A stretch of DNA of 64,000 bases from a virus. The notes under the pieces were generated by a model that made no database searches, was not told where the DNA came from, and saw only the letters and a list, made by a program, of their open reading frames with translations. Numbering within the stretch: the first letter of the stretch is position 1; each line of letters starts with the position of its first letter. This document shows positions 38,788 through 61,428 of the stretch, piece after piece. The stretch spans positions 32,001-96,000 of the IMG/VR virus record IMGVR_UViG_3300027741_000025, one strand, 5' to 3'. Made by a program: the position numbers and the translations under genes.

Positions 38788-39129
38788 TTAGTCACCTTTT
38801 ATTATTCTAATTGAGTCTTCTTCAAAATGTTGTGTTGAAAATTCAAACAACTCACTTTCTTCCAATGCTATTATTTGATGTCTTGTTCCTCTTGGTATAT
38901 CAATTTTATCACCTGGATTTAATACTATATCTTTGGCTTCTTCCATGTTGTCCGTAGATCCAAGTTTCAATAAAATCCTTCCACTCTGTAGGTAGAATGT
39001 CTCCAATTTTAAAACATGGGTATGGTATGAGCATTTTTTATTTTTATTAAAATATAATATTTTCCCACAATACTCATTGTTGTTAACAATAATTTTTTCG
39101 TAACCCCAGCCCTTTTTTATAATTTCCAT
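38788..39129 (-). CDS. Cupin (mannose-6-phosphate isomerase/sugar-isomerase-like)
   Basis: KGWGYE...SYHTH..K.ETFY...IPRGTRH. Confidence 0.85.
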   Translation of the reverse strand: MEIIKKGWGYEKIIVNNNEYCGKILYFNKNKKCSYHTHVLKLETFYLQSGRILLKLGSTDNMEEAKDIVLNPGDKIDIPRGTRHQIIALEESELFEFSTQHFEEDSIRIIKGD

Positions 39130-39184
39130 ATTATCATTTTAGTGTTTTTCTTTAAATTTTCAAACGAAAAATGTAAATATTAAT

Positions 39185-39535
39185 ATGGATCAATTGACAA
39201 AAGAAAAATTAAACAATCTTGAAAAAAGCCAAGATAAAGTTTTGCAAAAAATAGATGAATTTAAAAAAGAAATTATTGAATTTGAAAAATCATTGAATTC
39301 AAAAGATTCTAAAATCAGCGTATTACAAAGTAAAATAAAAGATTTAAAAGAAGATGTAGATACTTTTTGTGAAAAAGTTCAAAATTTTGAGGTTAAAATA
39401 GAATCCATCCACATACGCACCACAAGCACAGAAAGTAAATGGTCAAGTATAATTGAATTTTTTGTTAAGATATTTTGGGTAATTATGGTGTCCTATCTAC
39501 TCTACAAACTAGGTATACAGGGACCACCAGCATAA
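39185..39535 (+). CDS. Coiled-coil protein with C-terminal transmembrane helix
   Basis: Heptad repeats followed by IIEFFVKIFWVIMVSYLLY. Confidence 0.7.
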   Translation: MDQLTKEKLNNLEKSQDKVLQKIDEFKKEIIEFEKSLNSKDSKISVLQSKIKDLKEDVDTFCEKVQNFEVKIESIHIRTTSTESKWSSIIEFFVKIFWVIMVSYLLYKLGIQGPPA

Positions 39536-39571
39536 TTAATTTTTAAAACACCCTAATATATAGTATACAAG

Positions 39572-40804
39572 ATGAAGGGAACAAATATGCCAGGCAAATT
39601 TAGTGATTACTTATCCATCAGAGAAAATAAAACCCCTGTATTATCAAAGGTTAAGCTGGCTAGGTCACCAGGACAAGAAGAGTTTCAGCCATTTGTTATT
39701 GATAAAGAAAATCACTCAAATTTACGAGAATTAGTAAAAGCTTTTGAAAATAGTACAGAAGTTGGCGTTGGTTACACGACAATAGACAAAGAAAAAGGTG
39801 AAGTTGAACCAAAATTAAAGAAGAAAACATTATATCTTACTGGTGGTGCTGTTAGAGATCATCTAAAAGGAAAAACTCCACGTAATTATGACCTGGCGAC
39901 TGATGCAACAGCCAGTGAAATAAAAATGATACTATCAGGCTCTGGTTTCGAGGAGATTCATTCTGAATTTTCTAAGGACAAAAATTTACCAACTAATCCA
40001 AAATCAAATAAATATTTCTTTGTAAGCAGGCTCAGCAAAAAAGGAAACGAGGCTGAATTCACAGCTGTAGTTGATAATGAAGATTTCTTTTTGGCTCCAA
40101 TGTCAAAAAGTCTAAAAAGCAGAAGACTATCGCCCGAAGATTTTTCTGCCTCAAGCCTGGAGGATGACGCTTCCTATAGAGACTTTACAATTAACTCAAT
40201 GTATATTCCTTTAAAAAATTCAGATGGAGATAACACAGAGCTGATAGATATTTTTGGTGGAGCTCATCATTTAAAAAATGGTCAAGTGGTCTCTGTTGGT
40301 GAGTTTGGCAAAAAGGTCAAAGATGACCCGATCACAGCCCACAGATATTTAAGAATGCAGGCAAGATATGGCAAAGGAGAAATGCCAGAAAAACTCACAA
40401 ATATCACAAGAGGAATAAATGGCTTGGACCCAGACTATAAAAAAGAATATGTCTTTGGTCTTGAGAACCCAGATATAGATTCGTCCAGATATCTCAAGAT
40501 GTATTCAAATTCTGGTCTTTTGAACACAGTTTATCCTATAGATGATTTGTCTGTTGAAGATATGCCAGAAAAAGCCTTGGGAGATAGGTTTTTAACAAGT
40601 GCTTGGTTGTTAAAAGATAAAGATATGGAGCAAACCAAGTTTGCTTTAATGTCTGCTGGTTGGGATAAACAAGAAGTAAATGATATTTTATACTTAATTA
40701 AGGCGTATCAATCTTTTAAAAACAGATACGACACTACAGACCAAACAAGCTCAATGTGCGGTTTGCCAGCGTATAAAATAAACAAATGGAAAAACCTATA
40801 CTAG
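39572..40804 (+). CDS. Class II nucleotidyltransferase (CCA-adding/poly(A) polymerase family), degenerate motifs
   Basis: LYLTGGAVRDHL.G..PRNYDLATD, EDDASYRDFTINSM, DIFGG..HL. Confidence 0.85.
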   Translation: MKGTNMPGKFSDYLSIRENKTPVLSKVKLARSPGQEEFQPFVIDKENHSNLRELVKAFENSTEVGVGYTTIDKEKGEVEPKLKKKTLYLTGGAVRDHLKGKTPRNYDLATDATASEIKMILSGSGFEEIHSEFSKDKNLPTNPKSNKYFFVSRLSKKGNEAEFTAVVDNEDFFLAPMSKSLKSRRLSPEDFSASSLEDDASYRDFTINSMYIPLKNSDGDNTELIDIFGGAHHLKNGQVVSVGEFGKKVKDDPITAHRYLRMQARYGKGEMPEKLTNITRGINGLDPDYKKEYVFGLENPDIDSSRYLKMYSNSGLLNTVYPIDDLSVEDMPEKALGDRFLTSAWLLKDKDMEQTKFALMSAGWDKQEVNDILYLIKAYQSFKNRYDTTDQTSSMCGLPAYKINKWKNLY

Positions 40805-41634
40805 TTCAAGCAATCGGATCTCCCTTCGATTTAAATGTAAGCTCTTGTGGAAAAAGAAAGCCAAAGCTTTTTTCTTGGACTAATAGTCCACAAGATATCA
40901 AAATAAGAATAGACCACGCTTTACATGATGGCTTAAGCGATAATAATAAGTCTGGCAAATTTGGCTGGACATGTGAATCTAAAGCTATAACTCGTGGACT
41001 CTTTGATGGATTGAGAAATAATTTTACAAGATACAAAGAATCTTACTCTAAAATTTTCACTTACGATGAACAGTTGATCGAGTTAGACCCAGACTTTTTC
41101 ATCTATTGTCCTGCAGGCAGTAACGCTCCATGGACACCTGATGAAGAATATGGAATTCATGAAAAAACAAAACTTGTTTCTTTTTTGTGCAGCAATAATT
41201 CAATGACAGATGGTCATCGTTATCGTTTGTCGTGGGCTGAGAGGCTACAAGATAAGGTAGATATGTATGGTGGAGCCTGTGGAAGCAAACAAATAGGCGG
41301 CTCGCATTGGTACCATCATCAAAGAAAAACTGAAGCAATGAACGAATATATGTTCAGCATAGCAATAGAGAATGTCAACATGGATTGCTACTACACAGAA
41401 AAAATAACAGATTGTTTTGCAAATGGGGTGATACCAGTTTATTATGGTTCAAAAAGTATCACAAAACACTTTAACAATGATGCTATAATATTCTTGGAAG
41501 AAGACTTTGATGTAAATCAATTATCGGAAGAATTATATTATTCCAAATTAGAAGCTGTTAAAGATAATTTGAACATAGTTAGAAACATGTGTATTTCTGA
41601 TGATTTATTGTTCAAAAAAATATCTTTATTGTGA
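40786..41634 (+). CDS. Glycosyltransferase family 10 (alpha-1,3-fucosyltransferase-like)
   Basis: YMFSIAIEN...YYTEKITDCFANGVIPVYYG. Confidence 0.9.
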   Translation: MEKPILVQAIGSPFDLNVSSCGKRKPKLFSWTNSPQDIKIRIDHALHDGLSDNNKSGKFGWTCESKAITRGLFDGLRNNFTRYKESYSKIFTYDEQLIELDPDFFIYCPAGSNAPWTPDEEYGIHEKTKLVSFLCSNNSMTDGHRYRLSWAERLQDKVDMYGGACGSKQIGGSHWYHHQRKTEAMNEYMFSIAIENVNMDCYYTEKITDCFANGVIPVYYGSKSITKHFNNDAIIFLEEDFDVNQLSEELYYSKLEAVKDNLNIVRNMCISDDLLFKKISLL

Positions 41635-41649
41635 AAGCGTAGATAGATT

Positions 41650-42375
41650 ATGAATAGAAAAATAACAATAGTCCACCCCTCCAGGCAAAGAAGCGATCTT
41701 TGCTATAGAATAGCTGATTTGTTTTATGGCAATTGTGTAAACAAGGACAATGTTTCTTATTATATATCTATTGATTCAAGTGATCCAACAAAAGATGAAT
41801 ACCTAGCTGGCAAGAAAGATTATGCCAAAATAATTGTTGGAGATGGAAACTCTTGTGTAGAGGCAGTAAATATTGGGGCTAAAGAATCAAATTTTGAAGA
41901 CATAATTGTGATAGTATCAGATGATTTTGTTTGCCAAAATGGATGGGATCAAAAAATACTGGATTTTGTAGGGGATAAGAAAAATTTTGTTTTAAAAACA
42001 AATGATGGAAGAGAGCCTTGGATTGTAACGTTTCCAGTTATGGACAAAGAATATTACAATAGATTTGGCTATGTTTACAACCCATTATATAAACATTTAT
42101 TCTGCGACACAGAAATGACACATGTTGCAGAGATTACTGATTCTCTTCTAATAGATATGTCTAATGTCATAGAGCATAAAGCAACAGAATTAACAAAAAA
42201 TGATTCTGTAAACATGAAAAACAACTCAACTTGGTGGCAGGGAGAATCTGTTTATCTACAAAGAATAAGAGAAAATTTTGGATTAAAAAAAGAAGAGATT
42301 GTTAAAACTCCATCTCATCCATCGCATATAGAATGGCTTAAGCAAAAAGGAATAAATATAAACGAACACTCATAG
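41650..42375 (+). CDS. GT-A fold (GT2-like) glycosyltransferase
   Basis: IVHPSRQR, AVN.GA, SDDF...GWD, HLFCDTE. Confidence 0.8.
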   Translation: MNRKITIVHPSRQRSDLCYRIADLFYGNCVNKDNVSYYISIDSSDPTKDEYLAGKKDYAKIIVGDGNSCVEAVNIGAKESNFEDIIVIVSDDFVCQNGWDQKILDFVGDKKNFVLKTNDGREPWIVTFPVMDKEYYNRFGYVYNPLYKHLFCDTEMTHVAEITDSLLIDMSNVIEHKATELTKNDSVNMKNNSTWWQGESVYLQRIRENFGLKKEEIVKTPSHPSHIEWLKQKGININEHS

Positions 42376-42381
42376 TTATAA

Positions 42382-42897
42382 TTATTTTATAACAGATGAG
42401 TGGATATAAAAATCATCTTGTCTATTTACTTCTTTTATAAGAATGTATCCTCTATCGGTCAAGTATTTTCTTGAGGCATCTTTTGTGCCACATTCTCTAT
42501 AGGCATCTGTTTCAAATGTAATTACATTAAAAGTATATTTATCAAAAGGAACCTTGTACAAAGCTTTGAGGCTTATGTGAGGGGGCTCTAAATCGATTGT
42601 GAGATAATCTATTGTTTTATTGTCTTTGAAAAACTCATTCATTTGTTTTTCATATTCAAAAGTTAAAGCATCATGACAACAAAACTTTGTGTTAGGTCTA
42701 TTATCGAAATAGCTATTTGTATGATCTTCAATATCAATACACATTCCACTCCAACCAAAACCCTTGTCTAGGGCATAAGTATTCGATATAGTCTCAGACG
42801 GTCCAGCTCCAATATCTAAGAATGTGCCTTTTTTTTTGAAATTCAATGTTTCCATTACAAATACATCTTGCCCTATTTGAGACCTATAGTAATTCAT
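42382..42897 (-). CDS. FkbM-family methyltransferase
   Basis: SQIGQD, FLDIGA, SNTY, IDYLTIDLE. Confidence 0.85.
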   Translation of the reverse strand: MNYYRSQIGQDVFVMETLNFKKKGTFLDIGAGPSETISNTYALDKGFGWSGMCIDIEDHTNSYFDNRPNTKFCCHDALTFEYEKQMNEFFKDNKTIDYLTIDLEPPHISLKALYKVPFDKYTFNVITFETDAYRECGTKDASRKYLTDRGYILIKEVNRQDDFYIHSSVIK

Positions 42898-42909
42898 ATT
42901 TATATTCTC

Positions 42910-43746
42910 CTAAAAAATAACAAATTGCCCATTATCCTTACATTGCGATAATTCTTTTAAATTTGCCCGATATAATACAGGTATTAAGCCGCAATTTCCT
43001 GAATGAGTTATCAAATATTTACAATTAGATATAATTCTAACTATTGACTCAAAGTTTATACTCCACTCTATTTTATTCTCAGTTGGTTTGACATAAGTGT
43101 TGTTAAATATCATTTCTTCAAAAAAGAATGCATTATCAAAATTTGACATAAATATATCTCTATTGCGAAGTTCATCTGTTTGTATAAGAAGTCTATATTT
43201 TTTGTTTCTTTTGTTGATATGGTCTAACCAATCATTTGGGTGCGCTAAATTAACCTCAACATGCTTATCAGTTCCTCTGTTAAAAATAGCCATAGTGTTA
43301 CTGTAATCTATGTTGTATTTTTGTTCTAAAAATTTTATTCTTTCCAAAACAAGATCAGAAGGACTAAAGTAAATGTCTTCGACCATTTTGATTTGCTTGA
43401 AATTTAATTTTTGAAATTCTGCATGATTCGACCAGTAACCATCATGATTTCTAAGAACTCCTGATTCAAAATCTTCAGACTTAAGTTGATCTAAAGTTTC
43501 TAAATTAACCTTGTATATAAAAGGATACAGGTCTTTATCATCACTGTAATTGTGCAGGTGTTTTAAAGTATCGTTAAAAGAAACATTCTCGGGATATATT
43601 TTCATTCGCGCCAATTCATATATGGCGAAACGTACCTCATTTATGCATGAATAAAAACCGCCTGTTTTATGAGTCCCGTAAACAGTTTTGTCTTCTTTAT
43701 TGTAATAAGCGTTTCTGAGAAAAATTAGTTGTTCCATCACCTTCAA
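42910..43746 (-). CDS. NodZ/O-fucosyltransferase-like (GT-B) protein
   Basis: GFYS, RGTDK, IQTD and LITHSGN motifs. Strong GGAGG RBS. Confidence 0.7.
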   Translation of the reverse strand: MKVMEQLIFLRNAYYNKEDKTVYGTHKTGGFYSCINEVRFAIYELARMKIYPENVSFNDTLKHLHNYSDDKDLYPFIYKVNLETLDQLKSEDFESGVLRNHDGYWSNHAEFQKLNFKQIKMVEDIYFSPSDLVLERIKFLEQKYNIDYSNTMAIFNRGTDKHVEVNLAHPNDWLDHINKRNKKYRLLIQTDELRNRDIFMSNFDNAFFFEEMIFNNTYVKPTENKIEWSINFESIVRIISNCKYLITHSGNCGLIPVLYRANLKELSQCKDNGQFVIF

Positions 43747-43831
43747 CCTCCTCCTTGAGTTTGCGATTTCCTACAGTATATATTATTTTATATTTAAAAA
43801 TTAAATAAATATTTTTTTTATATATAATGAT

Positions 43832-44491
43832 ATGAAAACAACACTTCTTACATTTACTGATCCGAATTACGAACCAAGAAGATTAACAACTCTTTCTTTT
43901 AATAAAAAAATGGTTGATAAAGTTTGGAACGCAAACCCATCAGATTTTGATGATAATTTTAAAAAACAAAATGAATTTATATTAAATCAACGTAGAGGTT
44001 ATGGCTACTGGCTTTGGAAACCATACTTAATACTAAAATACATAGAAAACCTATGTAGTGAAGATGAAATGCTTATATATTGTGATGCCGGAGATTGGTT
44101 CTCAGAAAAAATGCTTGACTTGGCTAAACTGGAAACAAAAGATTGTCTTTTTATAAGAGGTCCTTTTTTAAATTATAAATATACAAAAAAAGATTGTTTT
44201 GTACTAATGAATTGTGATGAAGAAAAATACTGGAATTCTGGTCAAACGTATGGCGCTCTTTGTTTTTGGAGAAAAACAAAAACAACAATAGACTTCTTAA
44301 AAGAGTGGTTTGATTATTGCAAAAATCCTAATATTTTAACTGATGCTCCCAACATTCATGGAGAAAATATACCTGGATTTATAGATCACAGACACGATCA
44401 ATCTGTTTTGACTAATTTGACCATACAACGTGAAATGTTAAGAAAAGATCAAACAACAGACAATCCTTGGAATGTAATTTATAATGATTGA
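43832..44491 (+). CDS. Putative glycosyltransferase
   Basis: GYGYWLWKPYLI, YCDAG and DHRHDQS motifs. Confidence 0.75.
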   Translation: MKTTLLTFTDPNYEPRRLTTLSFNKKMVDKVWNANPSDFDDNFKKQNEFILNQRRGYGYWLWKPYLILKYIENLCSEDEMLIYCDAGDWFSEKMLDLAKLETKDCLFIRGPFLNYKYTKKDCFVLMNCDEEKYWNSGQTYGALCFWRKTKTTIDFLKEWFDYCKNPNILTDAPNIHGENIPGFIDHRHDQSVLTNLTIQREMLRKDQTTDNPWNVIYND

Positions 44492-45371
44492 TATAAATGA
44501 TGTGGATAACCCTGAGTTATATTATAATTTAAAAAAAGGCTATGAGTTTTGCTCTTCGATAGCAGATGAGACTTTATCAAAACCAACTGAATATCATGTT
44601 GTTTGGAGCGGAAAATTTGATCGCAAGCAGTCTCTCCCAATAAAAAGTTTTTTTGCAACACAAAATTTCAAATTAGCCAAATTAAACTTGTGGTCCAACG
44701 AAGATCTGATCAACAATAATTATTTGAAACCCTTTAAAGATTTGATCAACTTTAGAAAATGGGATCCAATCGAAGAGGCTAAAGGAACGATCCTTGAGGA
44801 CTATAAAAGTTTAACAGCCACAGACGGAAAATTTTGGATCGATGGAGATATATTTAGATTGTTATGCTTGCATAAGTATGGAGGAGTCTATTTCGACATG
44901 GATGTTGTTCTGTTGAGAGATTTTTCTCCACTATTAAACCAAGAGTTTATGTACAAGTGGGCAGCAGAAAAAAACATGATTAACGGAGCTATAATGCATC
45001 TTTTTAAAGATAGCAAATTAACAAAAGATTTACTTAATCAACTATTGAATACAGCTCCAACACCAAATAGTCATTGTTACGGCAGAGATCTATATACTTA
45101 TGTAAGGGCTCAAAATAAAAATTGGACTATATTTCCAAGCACTTTTTTTAACACAGAGTGGCAAGCAACTCCGGAAGATACAAAAGACTATCCTGGCTTG
45201 GCTGAAGGGTTTAAACCATTTCAGAAATGCAATACAACCCATCTTTTTGAAAGGGCGTTTAGTTGGCACTGGCATAACCGATGGGGTGAATCAATAGAGA
45301 TGGGAAGTAAGTGGCAAATTATCGAAGAAATTATTGAAAAAAAGCTGTCCAGTATTGGATTCCATCTATAA
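44484..45371 (+). CDS. Glycosyltransferase family 32 (DXD motif)
   Basis: DIFRLLCLHKYGGVYFDMD. Confidence 0.9.
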   Translation: MIDINDVDNPELYYNLKKGYEFCSSIADETLSKPTEYHVVWSGKFDRKQSLPIKSFFATQNFKLAKLNLWSNEDLINNNYLKPFKDLINFRKWDPIEEAKGTILEDYKSLTATDGKFWIDGDIFRLLCLHKYGGVYFDMDVVLLRDFSPLLNQEFMYKWAAEKNMINGAIMHLFKDSKLTKDLLNQLLNTAPTPNSHCYGRDLYTYVRAQNKNWTIFPSTFFNTEWQATPEDTKDYPGLAEGFKPFQKCNTTHLFERAFSWHWHNRWGESIEMGSKWQIIEEIIEKKLSSIGFHL

Positions 45372-45387
45372 TTAGAAGAGGTGTTTT

Positions 45388-45987
45388 ATGAAACATATGA
45401 TAGATTGTGGCACTAATTTGTTTTATGGATTGAATGCGCTATCCAACAGATTTAATTTTGATGAAACTTGGAAAATAGATTGTTTTGAGGCAAATCCTTT
45501 TGTTTACGAACAAGCGATGAATCTAATTAAAAATGGAGACATTAAAAAATATTATCCAAGATATGATTCGAAAAACTTAAATTTATTCAACAAAGCCGTT
45601 TGGGTATATGATGGATTTATTGATATGAATATAGAGGCTGACAAACTCAGTAATGTGGCTAACATATTGAATAAACCCCCAGAAAAAGATACGGTCTATA
45701 ACAGAAATTTTAAATGGTCAAAAACAAAAATTCCTTGCATTAGATTATCTGAAATAATAAAGCAGTCAAATGCTGAAAAAATTGTTGTTAAGCTTGATGT
45801 TGAGGGAGCAGAATTTGAAATTATTCAAGATCTTATCAAAGAAAATTTATTGAACAAGATTAATTTCTTTTATGTTGAGTTTCATGAAAGATTCTTCGTA
45901 GAAGAATTAAACAAATATTCTGATATTAAAAATCAATTGATATCAGAGATTAATAAACAGGTAGAATTTTTCCAAGAATGGGATTAG
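45388..45987 (+). CDS. FkbM-family methyltransferase
   Basis: IDCG, FEANP, KAVW, KLDVEGAEF, VEFH. Confidence 0.9.
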   Translation: MKHMIDCGTNLFYGLNALSNRFNFDETWKIDCFEANPFVYEQAMNLIKNGDIKKYYPRYDSKNLNLFNKAVWVYDGFIDMNIEADKLSNVANILNKPPEKDTVYNRNFKWSKTKIPCIRLSEIIKQSNAEKIVVKLDVEGAEFEIIQDLIKENLLNKINFFYVEFHERFFVEELNKYSDIKNQLISEINKQVEFFQEWD

Positions 45988-45993
45988 TGAAAC

Positions 45994-46890
45994 CTACAAA
46001 TTTCTTTCATGTATCTTTGTGGAAGAATAAGATTGCTCACCCCTTCTTATTTTTTCTGTTATTCCTCCGTTACTCACAGAAGATCTTTTATTCAAAACTT
46101 CTTGGTTTAAAGCACTTCTCGATTTTCTGGTTGCTCCCTCTGACAGTATGGATCTAAACTCGATCGGAATATATCCACAAACCCATTGATTGTAAGTTTT
46201 TGCCCTTGTGTTTATGTCGTGATCATCATTCCCTAAGACAAAGTTAACCTCATCTAAGTAGTTCAGAGTCTTTAATTTTTCTCTGTCTATCATCCATGGT
46301 CCACGATTACATGTATCACCCACATAGAACTTATCGTATTGTTCGAACCTTAGATTCAAAGGAATCTCTACGTCTACTCCGAGTTTTCCTAAGCCTTGAG
46401 AATAATCAAACAATCCATGCACGCATCTCCCGGAAACAGAGAACACATCATTGTATTTTTCAAAAGGACGAGACATTATGTGGTCATAACCATATGTGAA
46501 AATTTGTATGTCTGCTTGTATTTCTATAACATAATTGGCGGTAGATAATTTAAAACCAATGTTATCACATGTTGTTTCAAATAAAGGATAGGCACTTTTT
46601 ACAAGTGTTATTTTTTTTAAATTTGAAAATGTGTTTTTATTTAAAAATTCTTTTACAACTTCCAAGCTTTTATCTTCGCAATTATCAAAGATCATTATTA
46701 ATTCAAAATCTTTTGAAATATTTTTTAAATTATGATTTAAATTTTTTATTATTACTCCTTCGTGGTTGTGAACAGGAGTAATAATGGAATAAATAAATTT
46801 ATCAGATTTTTTTTCAAAAAAATCAACTTTAACATTTTTATAACCTTCTGATGACAAAAAATTTTCTATTTCATTTGGGTCGTTCAACAT
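45994..46890 (-). CDS. Glycosyltransferase family 2
   Basis: SIITPVHNHE, FDNCEDKS, IQAD, DDHD. Confidence 0.85.
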   Translation of the reverse strand: MLNDPNEIENFLSSEGYKNVKVDFFEKKSDKFIYSIITPVHNHEGVIIKNLNHNLKNISKDFELIMIFDNCEDKSLEVVKEFLNKNTFSNLKKITLVKSAYPLFETTCDNIGFKLSTANYVIEIQADIQIFTYGYDHIMSRPFEKYNDVFSVSGRCVHGLFDYSQGLGKLGVDVEIPLNLRFEQYDKFYVGDTCNRGPWMIDREKLKTLNYLDEVNFVLGNDDHDINTRAKTYNQWVCGYIPIEFRSILSEGATRKSRSALNQEVLNKRSSVSNGGITEKIRRGEQSYSSTKIHERNL

Positions 46891-46931
46891 AAAACTCTAT
46901 TCTATTTTAATTGTTACTTATATATATTAGT

Positions 46932-47549
46932 ATGAAGAAAATAATATCATTTTCATTATGGGGAAGCAAACCGATATACAACATAGGTGCTATCAAAAAT
47001 GCAATATTGGCAAAAGATTTATATCCTGGTTTTGAGTGTTGGTTTTATTGTGATGAAAAAACAGTTCCTAAAGAAACATTTGATGGACTGTATTCTCTTG
47101 ATAACACAAAGATAATAATCAGGCAAGACGCGATAAAATCCTCTACCTGGAGATTTGAAGCTATCGACGACCCAAATGTTGAAATAATGCTATCAAGAGA
47201 CACAGACTCAAGAATATCTTTAAGAGAAAAAATAGCAGTTGATGAATGGTTATCCTCTGATAAACCATTCCACATAATGAGAGACCATCCGGACCACAGA
47301 ATGCCTATAATGGCTGGAATGTTTGGAACCAAGAAGATACCGGAAATAAATAGTTGGAGTGAATTATTGAATTCTGTTAATTCTTCTCATTATGGGAATG
47401 ATCAAGATTTTTTAATGAACCAAATCTATCCTGTAGTGAGAGATAAAAGTATAATACACGCTTCTTTTAATAAAATAGAAGGAGATGAGTGTAAAGATTT
47501 CTTATTTAAAGATGGTTCAAAATTTGTAGGAGAATATGTTTATGAATAA
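46932..47549 (+). CDS. Putative glycosyltransferase-like protein
   Basis: IISFSLWG, WRF, SRDTDSR, HIMRDHP, DQDFL. Start re-assigned to MKKII at 46932. Confidence 0.7.
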   Translation: MKKIISFSLWGSKPIYNIGAIKNAILAKDLYPGFECWFYCDEKTVPKETFDGLYSLDNTKIIIRQDAIKSSTWRFEAIDDPNVEIMLSRDTDSRISLREKIAVDEWLSSDKPFHIMRDHPDHRMPIMAGMFGTKKIPEINSWSELLNSVNSSHYGNDQDFLMNQIYPVVRDKSIIHASFNKIEGDECKDFLFKDGSKFVGEYVYE

Positions 47550-48398
47550 TCAATTGAATTTTTCTAATGCATAATTCAAAAATTCTTCTTCATTTAGATC
47601 TCTATATTCTTCTGGACAGTCAGTTTTTGTTACCCTCTTATTAAACATTTCTGCGAACGTTCCTTTGAATCCATCATCAAATGGCAGATGATAATTTTCA
47701 ATTATATCTATTCCATACATCATGCAGGCGGGTTTTATTTCAAAACAATCTCCATATCTTTGTAGATTTTTTGAATCAACAAATTTACCAATCTCATACC
47801 ATTTGTGACAAAATTTTACCATTGTATCAAAATCTATTTTATTAAAAAACAATTTATTCTCTATAGGGCATCTCATTTCTGCAAAATCTTTTTCCTGTAA
47901 ATCTGGCATGTAATGATTTACAATTGTTTTCAATTTATGGTTTATCATAATCTCTCCCGCAGCATTATACACCTGATGATAATCACCAGAGCACTTGACT
48001 ATGTTTGAGCAATACAAGCCTTTTTCAGTAAAAGAATCAAAGCAAGATTTGCCAAAGCTGCCAGTAGGTAAAACATCTGCATCTGTATGACAGATAGAGT
48101 TATTAGGTATAACCCTGGATGAGTAAGCGAGAGCTAAAGACTTCAAATAATATTTAAAGAATGTAGATTTACCATGACCAGGAAGAGTATATCCTGATGG
48201 CTTTACAATATTGTTTGATAAAATATTAAAATGACAAATAACTTTTTTTGAGTTTATTCTTTGACTAAAATCTCTATCTGTTGTTATGCAAAGATTTATT
48301 TTATCGTCATATATTGCATCTAATTTTTTAATAAAAAGTCTTGTGAAACTTTCATAAAGATCGCCCACAGACAACACGCTTAAAGTAATGTTTTCCAT
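47550..48398 (-). CDS. Putative GT-A fold glycosyltransferase
   Basis: ITTD and HTDADV (DXD), located inside the GT block. Confidence 0.55.
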   Translation of the reverse strand: MENITLSVLSVGDLYESFTRLFIKKLDAIYDDKINLCITTDRDFSQRINSKKVICHFNILSNNIVKPSGYTLPGHGKSTFFKYYLKSLALAYSSRVIPNNSICHTDADVLPTGSFGKSCFDSFTEKGLYCSNIVKCSGDYHQVYNAAGEIMINHKLKTIVNHYMPDLQEKDFAEMRCPIENKLFFNKIDFDTMVKFCHKWYEIGKFVDSKNLQRYGDCFEIKPACMMYGIDIIENYHLPFDDGFKGTFAEMFNKRVTKTDCPEEYRDLNEEEFLNYALEKFN

Positions 48399-48517
48399 AT
48401 GATTTCCAGGGTTTTATTAATTTAAAGAGCTGGGCATCCATGCCCAAAATTGATAATCCTAATCATCTCTACTTATATTTATCCTTCTCGTTTACATAAA
48501 TTTTTTGTTTGATAAAT

Positions 48518-52296: not shown

Positions 52297-52343
52297 GATA
52301 AATTATATATTAATATTATACAATTTTTATCATAGTTAATAAT

Positions 52344-52703: not shown

Positions 52704-52771
52704 GCATTATTCTTATTTTATTGCAAAACTATATCGAAGTGCTTTATGGTTTTGTTGCATATATAATTCAT

Positions 52772-55165
52772 ATGCCCACAAATGTAGTACTATATTCATC
52801 GGATGGAACAAACTGGAATTATGTTCCCACCAATTTCATAGATAATGCCACATCAGGACAAAACATATGGTGTTACGGTGATAATAAATACCTATATCTG
52901 GCATCGGATGGTGGAAGCGGAAATAAAATCTACTACTCTAGTGATTTGTCTACATGGACGAGAATATCTGCAAACAGTCAAGATAATTCAACCCTTGGTG
53001 TCGCAAGTGGAACATTGTGGTCGATCATATATGACGGAAGCAAGTTTATTTGTTTGCTAAGTAACCAAACACCAGCAAATTCTTCGGGTAGTCCTAGTGT
53101 TTTGTCAACCTCAACAGATGGTCTAAGTTGGACGCCAGTTCCTCCTATTATCGCCGGCAGCTCAAATGCACCAAATGGCAATCCATACTATGCTAAACAT
53201 TGTATGAATTTTCGTGGAGTTACCAACATATTGTATAATGGCAGTAGCACCTACATGATAGATGGATCTTTGCGAGAACAATATCAATCTGGCTCTAACT
53301 ATGTTGATGGATCAAACTATTGGAAATGCATAAGTATAGATGGAACTAATTGGACTACCGCTCCTTATGAAAGAGTAATAGTGGGGGCATCATGCTATGG
53401 TGATAATAAGTTCGTAGAAATAGCCTATGACTCAAGTAATGTCTTATCATGTTATATAATAACAGTCAATTATGACGCTACAATAAGCTATACTAAGTAT
53501 TCAAGCCCTTTTTCTTCTTACAATAATACTTGGAACGGCTTCAGCAAACAATACAGCATGGATTATGGAAATGGTAAATTTGTAGCAGTAAGACTATCAA
53601 ACCCAGCAATTATAGCTTATAGTAGTAATGCTATTAATTGGACTGAGGTTAGCATCCCCGTATCTGGTAGTAAAATCTGGAATGGTGTTAAGTTTGGTAA
53701 TGGTATTTTTATTATAAATCAATATGGTGCTGGTGACGACACATATTTATATTCATCGGATGGTATGAATTGGAATGTTGGTCATCACAGCTCACATTCT
53801 TCTTTTTCTCAAGAGGCATCATTTGCCAATGGTCAATTTGTGTTTTTTGCTGAGGACCCCAATACTACTCCTACACCAACGCCGACCAAGACATCTGCAC
53901 CAACACCAACACCAACACCAACCAAGACATCTACACCAACACCAACCAGGACATCTACACCAACACCAACCAGGACATCTACACCAACACCAACCAGGAC
54001 ATCTACACCAACACCAACCAGGACATCTACACCAACACCAACCAAGACATCTACACCAACACCAACACCAACACCAACACCAACACCAACACCAACACCA
54101 ACATCAACATCAACATCTACACCAGGACCGACAGCAACTGCAACTCTCACGCTTGGACCAACTACCCCAACTCTTACCAAGACACCAACTGCTACCCCAA
54201 CTCTTACTAAGACACCAACTGCTACCCCAACTCTTACTAAGACACCAACTACAACTCCAGGACCAACTACTACTCCAACTGCAACGCTAGGACCAACAGC
54301 AACTGCAACTCCTGCTACAACAGAATTTCCTGCAACTAAAATAAGATTTTATACCATGGAGTTGGTTTTAAAAGTTTTTGTAGACCCAAAAATTACATTT
54401 GGAAAGCTAGTTGATTTTAATGATCTTTCTAAAGATGTTGGTTTATATTTTTATAATGGCATAGGAAATAGAAATGTTGATCCAAGCACTTGTATGCCTA
54501 TAAGAGCAGTAGGACAATATTTACAATTTGTTCCAAAGGCTGGTCCTGGTAATACTGCGATGTCTCAGAATGATTACAACCAAATAGTTTTAAAGAGAGA
54601 AGAGACAGAAAAAGTTACTGTGTATTTAAACAAGGTAAAACAATTTGAGTTTTATGATTATGAAAAATACGCAGTAATAGACTCAAATTCTTTATGGTTT
54701 TTCAAAGATGATAATATTACAAATAATGAAGAGTTTAAATATAGAGTCTCTAAGATAGTAATATACCCTGATCCATTATCTGATGAAGAAATCGAGAGTT
54801 TGCCAATATTCCACGGAATTACATCTGATTGTGTGATAGGAACACCAGAACCAACAGCTTCTCCGCTACCAACACCCACACCAGAAGTTTGCATTGTAGA
54901 TATTAGCGATGTCCCAGAAAACCTATATACTTTCAAAGATTGCCCAGACCCAGCAGATTATTGCTATACCACAAGCTTTATTTCTCATTTAACAAATATT
55001 TATTCAACAAATTATTCAAGAGAATGCCGCTCCACAAGCACGGGCGTTGGATACAGAACAGAGTGCTTTTCAACAAGCTTTTCTACAAGCTGCTTTTGCA
55101 CATCCACATCCACATCCACATCAGCATCTCATGGCTTTATAGATATGGTTGATTTTATTCCATGA
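52772..55165 (+). CDS. Mucin-like adhesin: BNR/Asp-box propeller, Pro/Thr stalk, LamG-like domain, Cys-rich tail
   Basis: Repeated S.DG..W motifs and PTPTRTST repeats. Start re-assigned to MPTNVV at 52772. Confidence 0.75.
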   Translation: MPTNVVLYSSDGTNWNYVPTNFIDNATSGQNIWCYGDNKYLYLASDGGSGNKIYYSSDLSTWTRISANSQDNSTLGVASGTLWSIIYDGSKFICLLSNQTPANSSGSPSVLSTSTDGLSWTPVPPIIAGSSNAPNGNPYYAKHCMNFRGVTNILYNGSSTYMIDGSLREQYQSGSNYVDGSNYWKCISIDGTNWTTAPYERVIVGASCYGDNKFVEIAYDSSNVLSCYIITVNYDATISYTKYSSPFSSYNNTWNGFSKQYSMDYGNGKFVAVRLSNPAIIAYSSNAINWTEVSIPVSGSKIWNGVKFGNGIFIINQYGAGDDTYLYSSDGMNWNVGHHSSHSSFSQEASFANGQFVFFAEDPNTTPTPTPTKTSAPTPTPTPTKTSTPTPTRTSTPTPTRTSTPTPTRTSTPTPTRTSTPTPTKTSTPTPTPTPTPTPTPTPTSTSTSTPGPTATATLTLGPTTPTLTKTPTATPTLTKTPTATPTLTKTPTTTPGPTTTPTATLGPTATATPATTEFPATKIRFYTMELVLKVFVDPKITFGKLVDFNDLSKDVGLYFYNGIGNRNVDPSTCMPIRAVGQYLQFVPKAGPGNTAMSQNDYNQIVLKREETEKVTVYLNKVKQFEFYDYEKYAVIDSNSLWFFKDDNITNNEEFKYRVSKIVIYPDPLSDEEIESLPIFHGITSDCVIGTPEPTASPLPTPTPEVCIVDISDVPENLYTFKDCPDPADYCYTTSFISHLTNIYSTNYSRECRSTSTGVGYRTECFSTSFSTSCFCTSTSTSTSASHGFIDMVDFIP

Positions 55166-55166
55166 T

Positions 55167-57509
55167 TCAAGAAGATAAAATTTTATCTATATAAAAGCCA
55201 GACACATAATCGATTAGTATGTATAAGTAGTCATTCACATAATTAAATTTTAAGTCTATTATTTCACCATCACCGTAGTACAATAACGAAGTATTGGTCA
55301 AAGAAGAATTTATTTTATATAAACTGTTTCCATGAGAAGTATTCCCTGGGGCTCCACAGATATAAACATAACCATTTTGTTCATCGATGTCCATGCTGAT
55401 ATGTTCCACGAAACTATTGGTCGGTTGATTATTCACTAAAGTGATAGAAGATCCAATAGTATTATTGGAATTCACCAGAGTTACTTTTAATGTAATGTGT
55501 CCTGAAGAACTCCAATCATCATTGACTGTAGCAACATATGTCAAATCGTTAGTTGTGTTAGACTTTATAGCTACGATATACTCACCAGAGGGTAGGGTCA
55601 ATGTTTCTATTGCAGAGTTGTTGGATGTATTTATAATATGCACAACATTTGAATAAAAATTGGCTACATACAATTTATTAGAATGGGTGTTGATCTCCAT
55701 AGAACCATTGGGATAAAAATCACCAGATATCGTGGTTAAAATAGAGGTTGTTGTGTAATTTCTAACTACTAATTGATTAAGACCTTCTGCTGTAAATATT
55801 TTATTGTTTACACTATCTAGCGCTGCATTAAATATAGCGTATGTGGGATCACCGTTTATTGTGGCGACAACAGAATCAGACGCTAAATCAATAATGCTGG
55901 CAGTTTTGCTTACATAATTTACAACTATTGCCTTTCTTTGAGTTCTATCCACACTAATAGTTGAGGGTTGAGCGCCAACAGTGATAACATTGCTGACAGA
56001 GTTGGTGTCATTATCAAAAACCCAAACAGTGTTGGTCTCTCCACCAGTACTGCCAGTGTTTAATATATAAAGTTTGTTCGAAGTTGTGTCTAGATCCATT
56101 GCGTCTGGAAATGTCATTCCCAATAAAGTCAGGGATATTGGCGTGGCTGCTGGTGTAGCAGTTGGTGTAGGCGTAACAGTTGGTGTTTTAGTAGGTGTAG
56201 CACTTGGTGTAAGCGTAGATATTGCTGTTGCTGTTAGTGTAAGCGTAGGTGTTGCTGTTTGTGTATGTGTAGGTGTTGGTGTTGCTGTTTGTGTAGGTGT
56301 TGCTGTTTGTGTAGGTGTTGCTGTTTGTGTAGGTGTTGCTGTTTGTGTAGGTGTGGCAGTTAGTGTAGGTGTGGCAGTTAGTGTAGGTGTAGGTGTTGGT
56401 GTTGGTCTCACATCATCACAATCTCTCCAATCAAAATAATTATCAGAATAATATTTGAAGTTTGTTACTAATTCTCCTGCTATACAAGCTGATTGATTTT
56501 TTAAAACATTAACTCTTTTGCCCAATATGGCCACCACAGATCCCCCAATATTGATCCAGTCGTACCCAGATTGCCGCATTACTCCGTCCTTGTAAGCAAC
56601 TAACTCCAAATCAACATTGCCAGATTGTCTTGTGTTATACCAAAATGCTTTCAAAGAGCCGCATATAGAAAAGCTATCACTATTAGAATCTCTTATATTT
56701 TTGATATACATAACAACGGATTCATAGCCAGTACCAACATTATCCCCGCCCCACTCATACCAGGGCAAAGCGGGTGCATCAGGGTATAAACGTTTTTTGC
56801 ACCAACCAACTTCATGTCCCTGTTCAGAACCATAAGAAATTGATGTTCTTGTGTCTAAATCTAATCCATCTAAGAACTTATATCTCACTACTATAAAATC
56901 GGCATCTATAAAACCTACATCTACTATTGGTGTGGCTGTTGGTGGTATAATTGTGGGCGATGGTGTTATCGGGCAGCAAGCACAATTGCATATAGGCTTA
57001 AGTTTTGTGCACTCCACCAGACTCTCAATTGCAAGCTTAAGTCCTGTGCCTTTTTCTACTCTTATAACAACAGCATTGTTGCCATCTACTATATCGCAAG
57101 CATAGTTGTAGTTTTCGTTGTATGGAACAAGATCTTTTGTTCTTTCGTTCCACTCTCTGAGATTATTCTGGAAGTAAAATCTGACGTCTTTGGATATCGG
57201 GCAAGATAATCCACAAAGATCAAAGTGCCCGAATTTATTTGGAATTTGATCGAGAGAGCCAGCACCATAACAATCTTCCCAAGATATAAATATTGTATTA
57301 ACACTAACGCCTTGTGTTGGCTCTGGTGTCGTGAGTGGACAACAAGACATATACTCCAGATTATTCCAGTGTTTAACTCCATCGCCAATTTTCAATTTTC
57401 CCGTGTTTATCTCAAACCCAGGTTCACCCAAAGCTAAAATCGGATTAGCATCATACCACTCTTGAAAAGTTCCATTTCTCAGATGTATTTGCGTGAATGG
57501 CGTTGTCAT
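55167..57509 (-). CDS. Fibre/adhesin with Mtd/hyaluronidase-type N-terminal domain, Pro/Thr stalk and YVTN-like beta-propeller
   Basis: [31 protein letters not shown]...WN.L, and [16 protein letters not shown] repeats. Confidence 0.8.
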
Positions 57510-57555
57510 AATTATAAATTATATAGTTTTTATCCGATTAATTGTCAAAAAGACT
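56971..57555. repeat. Direct repeat copy 1 (~585 bp, high identity to 60875-61459)
   Basis: Long identical stretches, e.g. TCTACTATATCGCAAGCATAGTTGTAGTTTTCGTTGTATGGAACAAGATCTTTTG in both copies. Confidence 0.9.
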
Positions 57556-57570
57556 AGCCTCTGCCTGCTA

Positions 57571-58815
57571 TCATGATACATATCCAACAAACTGAAGGCT
57601 ATTAACTGATGATTTATTGTTTTTAATTTCCATCTTATAGTATCTATAAGATGCCGGGGATGTTATGTTATATTTATAAATCCCCGAATAGGATGTGTCC
57701 GACCCAGATCTATTATCAAGCGAATTCCATGTAGAATTATCATTTGATCCATATAAAGTCCATGCTGTGAGTCTGTAGCCCCTGTTGTAGTTATCCGCAT
57801 ATATTCCACTTGTAATGTTGTAATAGCTTAGAGTGACGGCAACTCCGAAATCAAGATATCCAACTCCTCCTGTTTCAAAAGGACCCCAAGCAGATCGGGA
57901 AAGATCATAATATTTGTTTAGAGAGCTTACGGAGCTACTTTGGTTAGGGAATAATCCAAAATCACTACTAATATTTGCGCAATATCTAAACCCGAGATTT
58001 GAAAAAACTCTAGCGAAACTTGACCTATGACCTGTCCCAGGTGTTTCAACAAGAACAGAGCCAAAACCATCAATACATTTGGCTGTTGGAAACAATGTAT
58101 ATCCTCCATGAAGTTCACAAGGAGTACTAGGACTTTCATACCCCAAAATTTGCATTTCCCCAATCTGAAAAGCTTGTTCATTACGCAGGTCAGACACACT
58201 TCGCCCGCCTTTAGTAACTATTAATCTATAGTTTTTATAAGCCGTAGCACCAGAAACAGAATACTCTGAGTAAGAACAATTTCGGGCGAGCTTGCTTGTT
58301 GCGTTCGGAAATTTACCTTGAGATGTTCTGGCATCTACAGTTGTCCAAGTAACACCATCGTTTGTTCCAGACAAATACCAGTCTTGGGGAGTTTGGTCAC
58401 TCATATCACCATATTGGTTTGTAATATCGTCAAATAGATTTCCAATAACCCCTGCTCCAAAAGCATTATACATCCTGTATTTTGTAATTACCACAGGAAG
58501 ACCAAAACTAAAATATGCCTTAGATCTTGATACATAACCAGTTGTTCCTCCTCTCATTGAGTTTTTATAAAATGAATCATAAATACTTTGGTACGGCAAA
58601 ATTCCTGTAAATAAATTATTAACATAATTTATACTTTTTGTAGTCCCATCAATTAAACTAGAGTTATTGTATCTATTTCCAGAATAAATTATTGCTTCTG
58701 TATTATTTACATAATTATCACTAACAGAAAATTTATAGTATGACTTATGAGTAGAACTTACGTGTGTGTTATCATACATTGTTCCTCCTCCTACTAAAAT
58801 TCTTTCGGTCGGCAT
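57571..58815 (-). CDS. Tandem F5/8-type-C (discoidin-like) domain protein
   Basis: PQDWYLSGTNDGVTWTTVD and WTLYGSNDNSTW..LD...YRYYK. Confidence 0.8.
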   Translation of the reverse strand: MPTERILVGGGTMYDNTHVSSTHKSYYKFSVSDNYVNNTEAIIYSGNRYNNSSLIDGTTKSINYVNNLFTGILPYQSIYDSFYKNSMRGGTTGYVSRSKAYFSFGLPVVITKYRMYNAFGAGVIGNLFDDITNQYGDMSDQTPQDWYLSGTNDGVTWTTVDARTSQGKFPNATSKLARNCSYSEYSVSGATAYKNYRLIVTKGGRSVSDLRNEQAFQIGEMQILGYESPSTPCELHGGYTLFPTAKCIDGFGSVLVETPGTGHRSSFARVFSNLGFRYCANISSDFGLFPNQSSSVSSLNKYYDLSRSAWGPFETGGVGYLDFGVAVTLSYYNITSGIYADNYNRGYRLTAWTLYGSNDNSTWNSLDNRSGSDTSYSGIYKYNITSPASYRYYKMEIKNNKSSVNSLQFVGYVS

Positions 58816-58824
58816 AATTCACCT

Positions 58825-61428
58825 TTATGTTAAATAACCTTGTAATTGAATATCACTAATTTTTCCTAAGAAAAAAGTAGTAGAATTAACACCATCAGTA
58901 ACGCCATATCTATTTGAGCTATCTGTAACAGATATCTTATAGTAAAAATAAGAGTCTGGTGATGCTATGGCAAAAGTTGCCGAAGAACCAACTTCAACAA
59001 GGGTTCTGGTATCGAGCAGCGTCCATGAGTTAAATGTATTGGCTCCATATACTTTGAATGAATACTTTACCGGAGCGCCGGTAATGTTATCAAAATCAGC
59101 CCACATTTTATATGATGTTAATATTATTGGATAGTCAAATCCAAGATATCCATCTTTTGTTCTGTTTGTTGGCACCCCATTGGCACTACTTGCGACTTCA
59201 AAACTCCATTGACCTAGCTTAGCTAGATTTCCAGTTAAGCCAAGAATTGTTCCCATATTAAATACAGTACCAAAGGAATCAGAGTTTGTCAAAACACCAG
59301 AATTATTAAGATATTTAACTGTTGGTAATAATGTGTTGTATCCATGCAATGCACAAGGTGTTGTTGTGCTTTCATATCCCCAAAGCTGAATTTCACCAAT
59401 TTGAGTATCATAATTACAGAGACCGAGTGTTGCTGTTGGTGTTGGAGTTTTGGTTGGTGTTAGAGTTTTAGTTGGTGTTGAAGTTTTAGTTGGTGTCGGT
59501 CCAGGCAATCTAGTTGTTGTTGTTGGTGTTGTTGTTGGTGTTGTTGTTGGTGTTGTTGTTGGTGTTGGCGCAAGGGTTTCTGTTGGATCGGGTGTTGAAT
59601 CAGGTGGTGTTGGTCCCAAACATCTATAGCCATTTCTTCCCCCTGTAGAAATAACAAGTTTATATACTTTATAAGCTACAGGCGCCGGTATTGTGAATTC
59701 AGAGTAACTACTCAAACTTGGATCTGTTGATGTTGCATATGGCAATCTTGGTTGATTTGATCTGGTGTCAACTACATTCCAAGATATTTCATCGTTACTA
59801 CCATGCAGCGTCCAAGCTTGCGGAGTTTGATTACCAATATCTACATATCTGCCTTCAACACCATAATTAGCTAAAAATCCATTCCACATTCTATACTTTG
59901 TTACTACAGTTGGAATTCTAAAATCAAACAAAAATATTGGGAAAGAATTATTACTAAAGCTATATGAATCGCTTAACACATATTGAAGAGGAAGTTCACC
60001 ATTAAGAATACAGGCATTGGCGGGATTTACTACAGTATTAAAATACTGTCTGTAGTCAGGATTTATTAATATTGGTGGATTGTATTTTACTCCACCACCA
60101 ACCAACGCCCTAGGCGTGCCAGGCGCTGCTGTTAGCGTTGGTGTTGCTGTTGGACCAGGTGTTTTTGTTACTGTTGGTGTGGGCGTTACTGTTGGTCTGA
60201 GTGTTGCAGTCGGTCTAGGTGTTGCTGTTGGACCCGGCGTTTTGGTTGCCGTCACCGTTGGTGTTGGACCAGGTGTTTTAGTTAATGTTGGTGTTGGACC
60301 AGGTGTTTTAGTTAATGTTGGTGTTGGACCAGGTGTTTTAGTTAATGTTGGTGTTGGACCAGGTGTTTTAGTTAATGTTGGTGTTGCCGTGGGTGTTGCT
60401 GTTGGTCCAAGTGTAGCTGTGGGTGTTGCTGTTGGTCCAAGTGTAGCTGTGGGTGTTGCTGTTGGATAATAACAAACATCTATATTTGCTGTAAATGATC
60501 CGCTATTATCACCTCTTACATTATCGTTTGTTGCAAGGTAAAGTCTACCTGCTCCGACAGCAAAAGATTCAAAAGAAGACCCAGCACAAAACGGTTGACC
60601 GCTTAACCCTATTTTGGCAATAATTGCCTCATGTCTACATGGGCTTATAACATTGTCGATATTGTATAAAGAGTTTGGTAACTGGGCATCCGTTAGTCCA
60701 TCCGGATCAGAATTATAGTTCGGGCTGTTCATGAACGAATTTACTATTCCGGTTGCATTTATTTTTAAGTAACCAGAAACATCAATTTCACTATCTTGCC
60801 AGGGTATAGTAGGATCAATAATAAACGATTTTTGGCAATAAGGAGTTGATGTTGGTGTTGGTGATATTGTGGTAGGACAACAAGAACAATTGCATATAGG
60901 CTTGGGTTTTGTACACTCTACCAAACTATCAATTGCAAGCTTGAGCCCTGTACCTTTTTCTACTCTTATTACAACAGTATTGTTGCCATCTACTATATCG
61001 CAAGCATAGTTGTAGTTTTCGTTGTATGGAACAAGATCTTTTGATCTTTTGTTCCATTCTTCAAGGTTATTTTGGAAGTAAAATCTGACATCTTTTGATA
61101 CCGGGCAAGATAATCCACAAAGATCAAAGTGTCCGAATTTGTTTGGAATTTGATCGAGAGAACCAGCGCCATAGCAATCTTCCCAAGATATAAATATCGT
61201 ATTGACACCTGGTGTTGGCTCTGGCGTTGGCTCTGGCGTTGGCTCTGGCGTTGTGAGCGTACAACAAGACACGTAATCGAGATCGTTCCAACTTTTAGTT
61301 CCATTGCCGATTTTTAATCTTCCTGTGTTTATCTCAAACCCAGGTTCACCCAAAGCTAAAATCGGATTAGCATCATACCACTCTTGAGAAGTTCCATTTC
61401 TTAATTGTATTTGCTTGAATATTGTCAT
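58825..61428 (-). CDS. Fibre/adhesin: Mtd-type N-domain, LecA(PA-IL)-like lectin, Pro/Thr stalk, two discoidin-like domains
   Basis: N-terminus paralogous to 55167-57509. PWQDS...AIIAKIG...GRLYLATND....DNSGSF and [11 protein letters not shown] motifs. Confidence 0.8.

Follow-up and report, generated by a model that had tools for sequence, protein, structure and literature searches.

Gene content of the locus

The DNA analyzed here, called the window throughout, is a 64,000-nucleotide stretch (bases 32001-96000) of the 144,363-bp virus contig IMGVR_UViG_3300027741_000025 (35% G+C), and inside its tail and fibre region lies the subject of this study, an exchangeable cassette of ten genes for glycan-modifying enzymes (40792..48423, 7.6 kb). 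Genes are referred to by the lower of their window coordinates. The source is a freshwater huge phage: CheckV rates the contig as ~29% complete, which leads to a full genome of ~500 kb, of which the contig (G000 in our comparisons) covers about a third. The baseplate and tail module is of the myovirus type, and a tape-measure-like protein of 1,623 residues is encoded as well. In IMG/VR, 282 proteins on contigs of up to 533 kb are related to the baseplate protein, and the closest GenBank record, the 595-kb uncultured phage LR756511.1, is 46% identical in this protein. Five relatives assembled whole (G001, G002, G003, G004 and W01) and a close relative represented by metagenome contig L214 (twin L213) served for comparison.

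An earlier reading of the window from its letters (the sequence-only reading) had proposed eleven contiguous glycan genes, among them GT10, GT32 and GT2 glycosyltransferases (GTs), a NodZ-like enzyme, two FkbM methyltransferases and an HPAT/SERGT-like enzyme. The GT10, GT32 and GT2 calls all lie above curated Pfam cut-offs, while several other family assignments in the cassette are based on folds or weak matches. The first gene encodes a GT10-type fucosyltransferase (40786..41634, plus strand; PF00852, 50.1 bits versus a cut-off of 23.9, E 3.5e-13) with homologues labelled GT10 in cyanophage S-SCSM2R. Three further cyanophages, S-SRM01, S-SM2 and S-SSM7, have in their glycan clusters a 'putative transferase' with 35-42% identity to it. 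Next comes a GT-A-type glycosyltransferase (41650..42375, plus strand) with a match to PHROG 14945 'glycosyltransferase' (1.7e-16) and a weak GT2 match, and its homologues adjoin members of the 46911 family in certain bacteria and viruses. Gene 42382 (42382..42897, minus strand) specifies a probable class-I S-adenosylmethionine-dependent methyltransferase with an FtsJ-like match below threshold (17.2 bits versus 24.1). One FkbM-family methyltransferase is clear (45388..45987, plus strand; PF05050, 33.0 bits versus 22.7; TIGR01444, 55.6 versus 37.7), but 42382 could not be confirmed as a second copy because it shares no pairwise similarity with 45388; it also lacks an NCBIfam match. The minus-strand gene 42910 (42910..43746) is tentatively a candidate NodZ-like fucosyltransferase: its product is 24% identical to ORF303 of S-SRM01, which the authors of that phage matched to PF05830 (NodZ) using HHpred, and it has the conserved motif HRGNDK, but direct Pfam and PDB profile searches returned no match.

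The remaining genes specify a nucleotide-diphospho-sugar transferase-like GT-A enzyme (43832..44491, plus strand; weak Nucleotid_trans match) that is homologous to an annotated S-SRM01 glycosyltransferase and also to proteins in giant-virus bins, a GT32-type glycosyltransferase (44484..45371, plus strand; Gly_transf_sug with DXD region, PF04488, 37.1 bits versus 23), a GT2 glycosyltransferase (45994..46890, minus strand; PF00535, 31.9 bits versus 23.3), a GT-A enzyme with an RDTD motif assigned by its fold model (46911..47549, plus strand; the start is probably the ATG at 46932) and a probable GT-A enzyme whose homologues share an invariant HxDxD (47550..48398, minus strand). Single-sequence PDB searches with 41650, 42910 and 47550 gave chance matches only, and profile searches of the PDB with the families of 48518, 47550, 42910 and 6878 yielded nothing useful. 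In total, the cassette holds six firm GTs (GT10, GT32, GT2 and three other GT-A enzymes), two tentative ones, the FkbM methyltransferase and the second probable methyltransferase. Reading frames are intact and catalytic motifs are conserved across homologues, which argues for selection on the cassette.

No membrane or hydrophobic segment is present in any product of this island, a Pfam scan of these products gave no match to a lipid-carrier, flippase, polymerase or ligase family, and neither an initiating phosphoglycosyl transferase nor an ABC exporter is among them. Host enzymes could provide the steps of a lipid-linked surface-polysaccharide route. Genes for nucleotide-sugar synthesis (GMD, GDP-fucose synthase, epimerases) were not found in the 144-kb contig. 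The block is a genuine soluble multi-enzyme set for glycan building, equipped with a fucosyltransferase and O-methyltransferase(s) and situated among fibre genes.

Borders and turnover of the cassette

Similarity to L214 ends exactly at window position 40791 and restarts at 48424. The flanks are 87-97% identical in protein and 82-86% in DNA, while the cassette between them has no nucleotide similarity to L214. These borders divide the eleven contiguous glycan genes, which as such are real, into a cassette of ten and a single gene, 48518, located just outside in the conserved flank. The set of L214 at this locus is another one, 5.7 kb long, in which an HtrL_YibB-FkbM fusion, a Methyltransf_24 protein and a DUF3431 protein are encoded along with several unknowns. 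Yet another set, with an HtrL_YibB protein and a GT2, resides in G001 and G002 beside the same poly(A)-polymerase-like gene. In G003 the flanks are nearly adjacent, with one 200-residue unknown gene and no cassette between them; they are likewise nearly adjacent in G018, where the cassette is absent at the locus, and the flanking genes of G004 and W01 map close together. Of the island genes, 42382 alone has homologues in G001, G002 and W01, and a protein 95% identical to 42910 (P0026) is encoded on a 176-kb contig.

The conserved left flank consists of a nucleotidyltransferase gene with a poly(A)-polymerase/CCA-adding head domain (39572..40804, plus strand). It is kept across the clade beside tail genes and delimits the variable locus on the left. 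The small cupin nearby that had been noticed from the sequence (38788..39129, minus strand) is real and a possible sugar isomerase or epimerase; in L214 (18429-19646) it forms the C-terminal part of a 405-residue protein with an HNH endonuclease domain. Neighbouring fibre genes are partly replaced in L214 as well, as the cassette is. When window 52672-61428 is compared with L214:1-6700, the fibre genes appear as mosaics between close relatives: 52772 and 55167 keep their C-terminal domains (75-86%), while their N-terminal parts are absent or exchanged, as are 57571 and the greater part of 58825.

The flank gene 48518 (48518..49354, minus strand) belongs to the core genes of the clade and lies outside the swapped block; its product has a GT-A fold (model pLDDT 71.8, best folds GT6/GT8). 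Its family comprises 40 IMG/VR loci, found with an alignment-based pattern after a single-protein pattern had given nothing, and 74 metagenome loci across the clade (L173-L286 for all 114), stalk-free phages included. The model resembles retaining GT-A enzymes, with the metal-independent GT6 enzyme BoGT6a, LgtC, glycogenin and UGGT at the top. At the DxD position, which is not conserved in the family, NPC is found here and NPH, HPD or QPS elsewhere. The product and 12 homologues have no Pfam match even at E<=1. A single distant family member (G027) gives 17.2 bits with the HPAT model (GT95, PF23452) versus a cut-off of 23.9. Since no member reaches the threshold, the plant-type HPAT label is a hint and no finding, and the HPAT/SERGT-like assignment of the sequence-only reading was not borne out. 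Neither was the suggestion that 48518 primes the stalks: the gene is present throughout the clade, also in stalk-free phages, which excludes a specificity for Thr/Pro stalks. All family members start with an invariant MNYFVSI and are always located near the poly(A)-polymerase-like gene and a 49366-like gene.

Homologues of 46911 in protein and peptide contexts

The model of the 46911 product (pLDDT 87.8) has a GT-A fold resembling glycogenin, domain 1 of A64R from PBCV-1 (16% identity) and the Skp1 glycosyltransferase AgtA, three enzymes that work in the cytoplasm on glycans linked to protein; A64R helps to build the capsid glycan of its virus (PMC9614988). The closest predicted viral structures stem from Mimiviridae and an Aureococcus virus. 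The family has >2,200 members at about 58% identity, some of them named 'protein O-GlcNAc transferase' by JGI. An identity of 46911 as a GT41 enzyme was rejected, as the protein has a GT-A fold instead of the GT-B fold of GT41 and gives no PF13844 match, and the JGI label probably derives from fusion proteins of bacteria. Of 80 bacterial loci, 11 have the 46911-type domain in one reading frame with TPR and Glyco_transf_41 domains, and the family emerges as a common fusion partner of bacterial GT41 enzymes. In the fusion from Acaryochloris marina (L323:5049-10646), DUF4915, a 46911-type GT-A domain, TPR and GT41 (4.9e-117) are combined in one giant protein, and the same architecture occurs at L291, L292, L294, L303, L305, L306, L308, L310, L319 and L320. 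Such DUF4915/46911/TPR/GT41 proteins make up a recurrent, apparently uncharacterised multi-glycosyltransferase design in cyanobacteria and Comamonadaceae. To our knowledge, all characterised GT41 enzymes act on proteins.

At seven Bacteroidota loci, the 46911 family adjoins a full-length C39-peptidase ABC exporter. The locus in Chitinophaga hostae (L316:198-13102) has a 46911-family GT-A gene beside GT10, HlyD, C39-peptidase ABC exporter and GT25-like genes, two thioredoxin-like proteins and a Cys-rich peptide of 89 residues with a double-glycine leader (1669-1938). By its gene content it looks like a candidate cluster for a glycosylated bacteriocin (glycocin-like), and loci similar to it are L326, L330, L332 and L347. 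The acceptor in the GT41 fusions and in the glycocin-like cluster is probably a peptide or protein. Among viruses, 461 IMG/VR contigs encode the 46911 family. About 24 of the best 80 of these 461 loci are labelled giant-virus bins, and one bin that was examined contains six capsid genes of nucleocytoplasmic large DNA viruses (NCLDV). GT10 lies within 10 kb of the 46911 family in 26 of the same best 80 loci.

Judged by homology, some of the cassette enzymes are thus common to giant viruses of eukaryotes and bacterial glycopeptide clusters, and the GT10/46911-family pair appears as a conserved module that cyanophages, huge phages and giant viruses have in common with the peptide clusters of Bacteroidota. 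As giant viruses have no lipopolysaccharide (LPS) to modify, LPS cannot be the acceptor there, and the spread of the pair calls into question the routine labelling of cyanophage clusters as 'LPS genes'.

Fibre proteins with Thr/Pro stalks

Five fibre proteins encoded in the window carry Thr/Pro stalks, 28 to 290 residues each and with 426 Thr in total, exactly the five that had been singled out from the sequence; the whole 144-kb contig encodes twelve such proteins. The baseplate-operon fibre 15114 (15114..17630, minus strand) has stalks at residues 158-209 and 305-594, followed by a Gly-rich C-terminal domain, in which residues about 600-838 are extremely rich in glycine (runs of 6-7 Gly) and end in a hydrophobic IVIVRY tail. 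Next to it, the baseplate-module fibre 17642 (17642..19516, minus strand) combines a conserved N-terminal domain with a stalk at residues 258-422, which is lacking in its orthologues from stalk-free relatives. Beyond the cassette follow a fibre-like protein with a stalk at residues 358-522 (52772..55165, plus strand), an Mtd_N-domain fibre with a stalk at residues 362-463 and a beta-propeller-like C-terminus (55167..57509, minus strand) and a second Mtd_N-domain fibre with three Thr/Pro tracts and discoidin-like modules (58825..61428, minus strand). Between the latter two resides a stalk-free discoidin-like (F5/8 type C) protein (57571..58815, minus strand) that is paralogous to parts of 58825.

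Tandem repeats of 12 to 162 nucleotides, up to 100% identical, code for the stalks. A scan of the contig for the coding pattern TPTxTPTxTPT gave 39 occurrences, versus zero for the reversed control. No other exposed Ser/Thr-rich sequence of this genome comes close to the stalks in abundance. In agreement with the sequence-only reading, which had seen no evident signal peptide, neither a hydrophobic segment nor a signal-like N-terminus was detected in any stalk protein or glycosyltransferase. The more distant relative G018 (contig of L081/L191) ends, at bases 59056-59579, in a long tandem repeat of the (TPTE)n type, which suggests that a Thr/Pro repeat stalk arose independently in that phage. 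Literature searches on glycosylated Thr/Pro linkers in phage fibres produced no relevant paper.

The motif TATATA[TA] is enriched ~15-fold upstream of genes (26 of 83 upstream regions), often 10-16 bases before the start codon, and may be a promoter element of the phage. It precedes fibre genes as well as three island genes, with examples upstream of window positions 17642, 30045, 43832 and 55167. As many other genes are also preceded by this AT-rich motif, it is no proof of co-regulation of cassette and fibres. In the baseplate region, gene 6878 (6878..7729, minus strand) is conserved, and a Maf/MptE-like identity had been assigned to it. The match is unconfirmed: PF01973 scores 17 bits (cut-off 34.6), and a profile built from five sequences had no match in the PDB.

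Distribution of cassettes and stalks among relatives

A check for co-occurrence of GT blocks and stalk genes across relatives, as the sequence-only reading had proposed, revealed no specific association. The only positive signal comes from one low-GC subclade: in its members covering the locus (G000, L214 and G001/G002), Thr-rich linkers, of the TTTT type in G001 and G002, and a GT/methyltransferase cassette beside the poly(A)-polymerase-like gene are both present. No such Thr-rich linkers were found in G003, G004 and W01.

A number of observations weigh against glycosylation of the stalks by the cassette. The co-occurrence in the low-GC subclade may reflect a single evolutionary event. Thr/Pro coding patterns are present in 5 of 42 related contigs and missing from 37, and they are absent from four complete relatives of 373-533 kb. 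GT2 and FkbM genes are equally frequent in stalk-free relatives, as exemplified by the complete stalk-free genomes G022 and G029 with 6 and 7 GT2 matches, respectively, and by G023 with three FkbM matches. Furthermore, the stalk-bearing L214 and G001/G002 have different cassettes, and G018 has a Thr/Pro-repeat gene yet no cassette at the locus. Cyanophages S-SRM01, S-SM2 and S-SSM7 contain neither Thr/Pro stalks nor notable poly-Thr tracts, and nevertheless clusters homologous to the GT10, 46911, NodZ-like, FkbM and GT2 genes exist in them. A Thr/Pro tract lies within 10 kb of the 46911 family in 1 of the best 80 viral loci. No recognised polypeptide-priming glycosyltransferase was found, and GT41 (PF13844) is absent from 29 phage records (G000 and 28 others). 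Finally, Thr/Pro linkers are able to serve as plain extended spacers without any sugars.

Possible acceptors of the glycan

The sequences show a real, exchangeable glycan cassette, for which the stalks are a putative and partly supported acceptor. It is conceivable that the soluble enzymes act in succession in the cytoplasm of the infected cell and draw on nucleotide sugars of the host, among them GDP-fucose for the GT10 and perhaps for the NodZ-like enzyme, and on S-adenosylmethionine. The product would be a short oligosaccharide, containing fucose and capped by O-methylation, on a protein acceptor. The likeliest acceptors would be the phage's own fibre proteins, the stalks of which would expose hundreds of threonines before virion assembly. 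If so, the particle would switch its sugar 'serotype' whenever close relatives exchange the cassette as a whole. A glycosylation of proteins in the cytoplasm is favoured by the GT41 fusions, the glycocin-like cluster and the giant-virus contexts of the 46911 family, and the cassette probably decorates proteins. As to the acceptor, the stalks are favoured because they are the most abundant plausible one and because the cassette is situated among fibre genes and turns over with them. The stalk O-glycosylation put forward by the sequence-only reading thus retains a soluble enzyme set among fibres and protein contexts for one enzyme family, but its link to the stalks did not find comparative support, and we propose it tentatively, with somewhat less than even confidence.

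The families present, GT10, GT2, GT32, NodZ-like and FkbM, are also typical of O-antigen and capsule clusters, and the cassette might instead remodel an envelope glycan of the host during infection, be it LPS O-antigen, capsule, exopolysaccharide or S-layer glycan. The enzymes would then act on lipid-linked intermediates of the host at the inner membrane face and the stalks would be unglycosylated spacers; superinfection could be blocked in this way or progeny kept from sticking to debris. The nearest phage parallels are cyanomyovirus clusters labelled as lipopolysaccharide or cell-wall genes in stalk-free phages (PMC3037559; PMC9602691), the wholesale exchange resembles that of O-antigen serotype loci, and glycosyltransferases are widespread in stalk-free relatives. 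However, for the 'LPS clusters' of Sullivan et al., in which the GT10 homologue of S-SM2 and S-SSM7 lies, the function was stated to be unknown (PMC3037559). A purely LPS-directed role is disfavoured by the solubility of all cassette enzymes and by the lack of lipid-carrier and export steps, as the island encodes neither an initiating phosphoglycosyl transferase nor a flippase, an ABC exporter, a polymerase or a ligase. In addition, the GT10/46911 pair is also found in giant viruses of eukaryotes and in the glycocin-like cluster, and 46911 in GT41 fusions. A role in envelope remodelling is rather unlikely in our view. Proteins may be modified elsewhere than on the Thr/Pro stalks, either in the virion (capsid, sheath, tube, decoration proteins), as is the case in mycobacteriophages and chloroviruses, or in the host. 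The 46911 family with its protein and peptide contexts would fit this, as would the homologous clusters in stalk-free cyanophages and giant viruses, and mycobacteriophages bear glycans on capsid and tail-tube C-termini, as summarized in PMC12619734. On the other hand, no alternative acceptor motif was identified and the stalks offer the most abundant exposed Ser/Thr-rich sequence; we deem such acceptors improbable.

Least likely, in our estimate, is that the enzymes hypermodify the phage DNA with sugars, make a small glycosylated metabolite or constitute unselected cargo. Phage glycosyltransferases that decorate DNA are known (bioRxiv 10.1101/2023.12.21.572611; summarized in PMC12619734), and a G001 protein at the homologous locus has a weak TAGT match (E 0.0015). 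The fucosyltransferase, GT32 and FkbM sets nevertheless differ from known DNA glycosylation systems. No Tet/JBP gene was matched, although control genomes likewise gave no match, and the available parts of G000, G001 and G002 contain no thymidylate-synthase-like gene, a ThyA-like one being found only in W01. The possibility of 'stuffer DNA' was raised by Sullivan et al. (PMC3037559), but the intact reading frames and the catalytic motifs conserved across homologues argue for selection.

To return to the stalks as acceptor, if the fibres are decorated, environmental huge phages would join mycobacteriophages and giant viruses among the viruses with glycosylated virions. The Thr/Pro stalks would gain a biochemical role, and phages would diversify their surfaces by swaps of enzyme cassettes as well as of receptor-binding domains. 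It is a more general and rather doubtful idea that huge phages keep a fixed 'glycan serotype' locus in the fibre region, at which cassettes are swapped and the sugar coat on the stalks is varied.

Comparison with known systems

Clusters from cyanomyoviruses S-SRM01, S-SM2, S-SSM7, P-SSM2 and S-SCSM1 were considered as relatives of the cassette. With S-SRM01 it has in common the GT10 (41%), the 46911 family (37%), the NodZ-like protein (24%) and a GT-A enzyme (24%). The S-SRM01 cluster also holds FkbM and GT2 genes of the same families as well as GT11, GT25 and genes for GDP-fucose synthesis. In both cases the genes form an accessory island in a large myovirus. In contrast to the contig studied here, the cyanophage clusters contain genes for nucleotide-sugar synthesis, and they are located near hli, psbA or tRNA genes, whereas the cassette lies among fibre genes.

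In mycobacteriophages (Che8, Corndog, Myrna), GTs and methyltransferases of the phage have reportedly been proposed to modify virion proteins (Freeman et al. 2023). There, as we propose here, the phage would use a set of GTs of its own to modify its virion proteins in the cytoplasm. The mycobacteriophage glycans have been measured and reside on C-termini of capsid and tail-tube proteins, while the acceptors proposed here are internal Thr/Pro stalks of fibres. In the serine-rich-repeat adhesins of streptococci and staphylococci, GtfA/B and accessory soluble GTs O-glycosylate a stalk of Ser/Thr repeats stepwise in the cytoplasm. The adhesin stalk presents a binding domain, and the proposed glycosylation of the fibre stalks can be likened to it. 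The adhesin system has a GT4 priming pair and a dedicated export route, in contrast to the window, where no GtfA/B homologue was identified.

Giant viruses build their virion glycans with soluble viral GTs and sugar O-methyltransferases, as is the case for A064R/A061L of PBCV-1 and the fibril cluster of Mimivirus (PMC9614988). They share with the cassette the 46911 family, often together with GT10, and the 46911 protein has the fold of A64R domain 1. Their hosts, however, are eukaryotic, the PBCV-1 glycans are N-linked on the capsid and the Mimivirus polysaccharides are carried on fibrils, with no Thr/Pro stalk involved. O-antigen loci differ by the possession of Wzx, Wzy, Wzm, Wzt or an initiating transferase, none of which is present in the viral locus among the fibre genes. 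Serotype cassettes of this kind nevertheless provide a close parallel for the mode of exchange, as there, too, a block of GTs and modifying enzymes is replaced wholesale between conserved flanks in close relatives. If a fixed 'glycan serotype' locus does exist in huge phages, it would be to the virus particle what O-antigen switching is to the bacterium.

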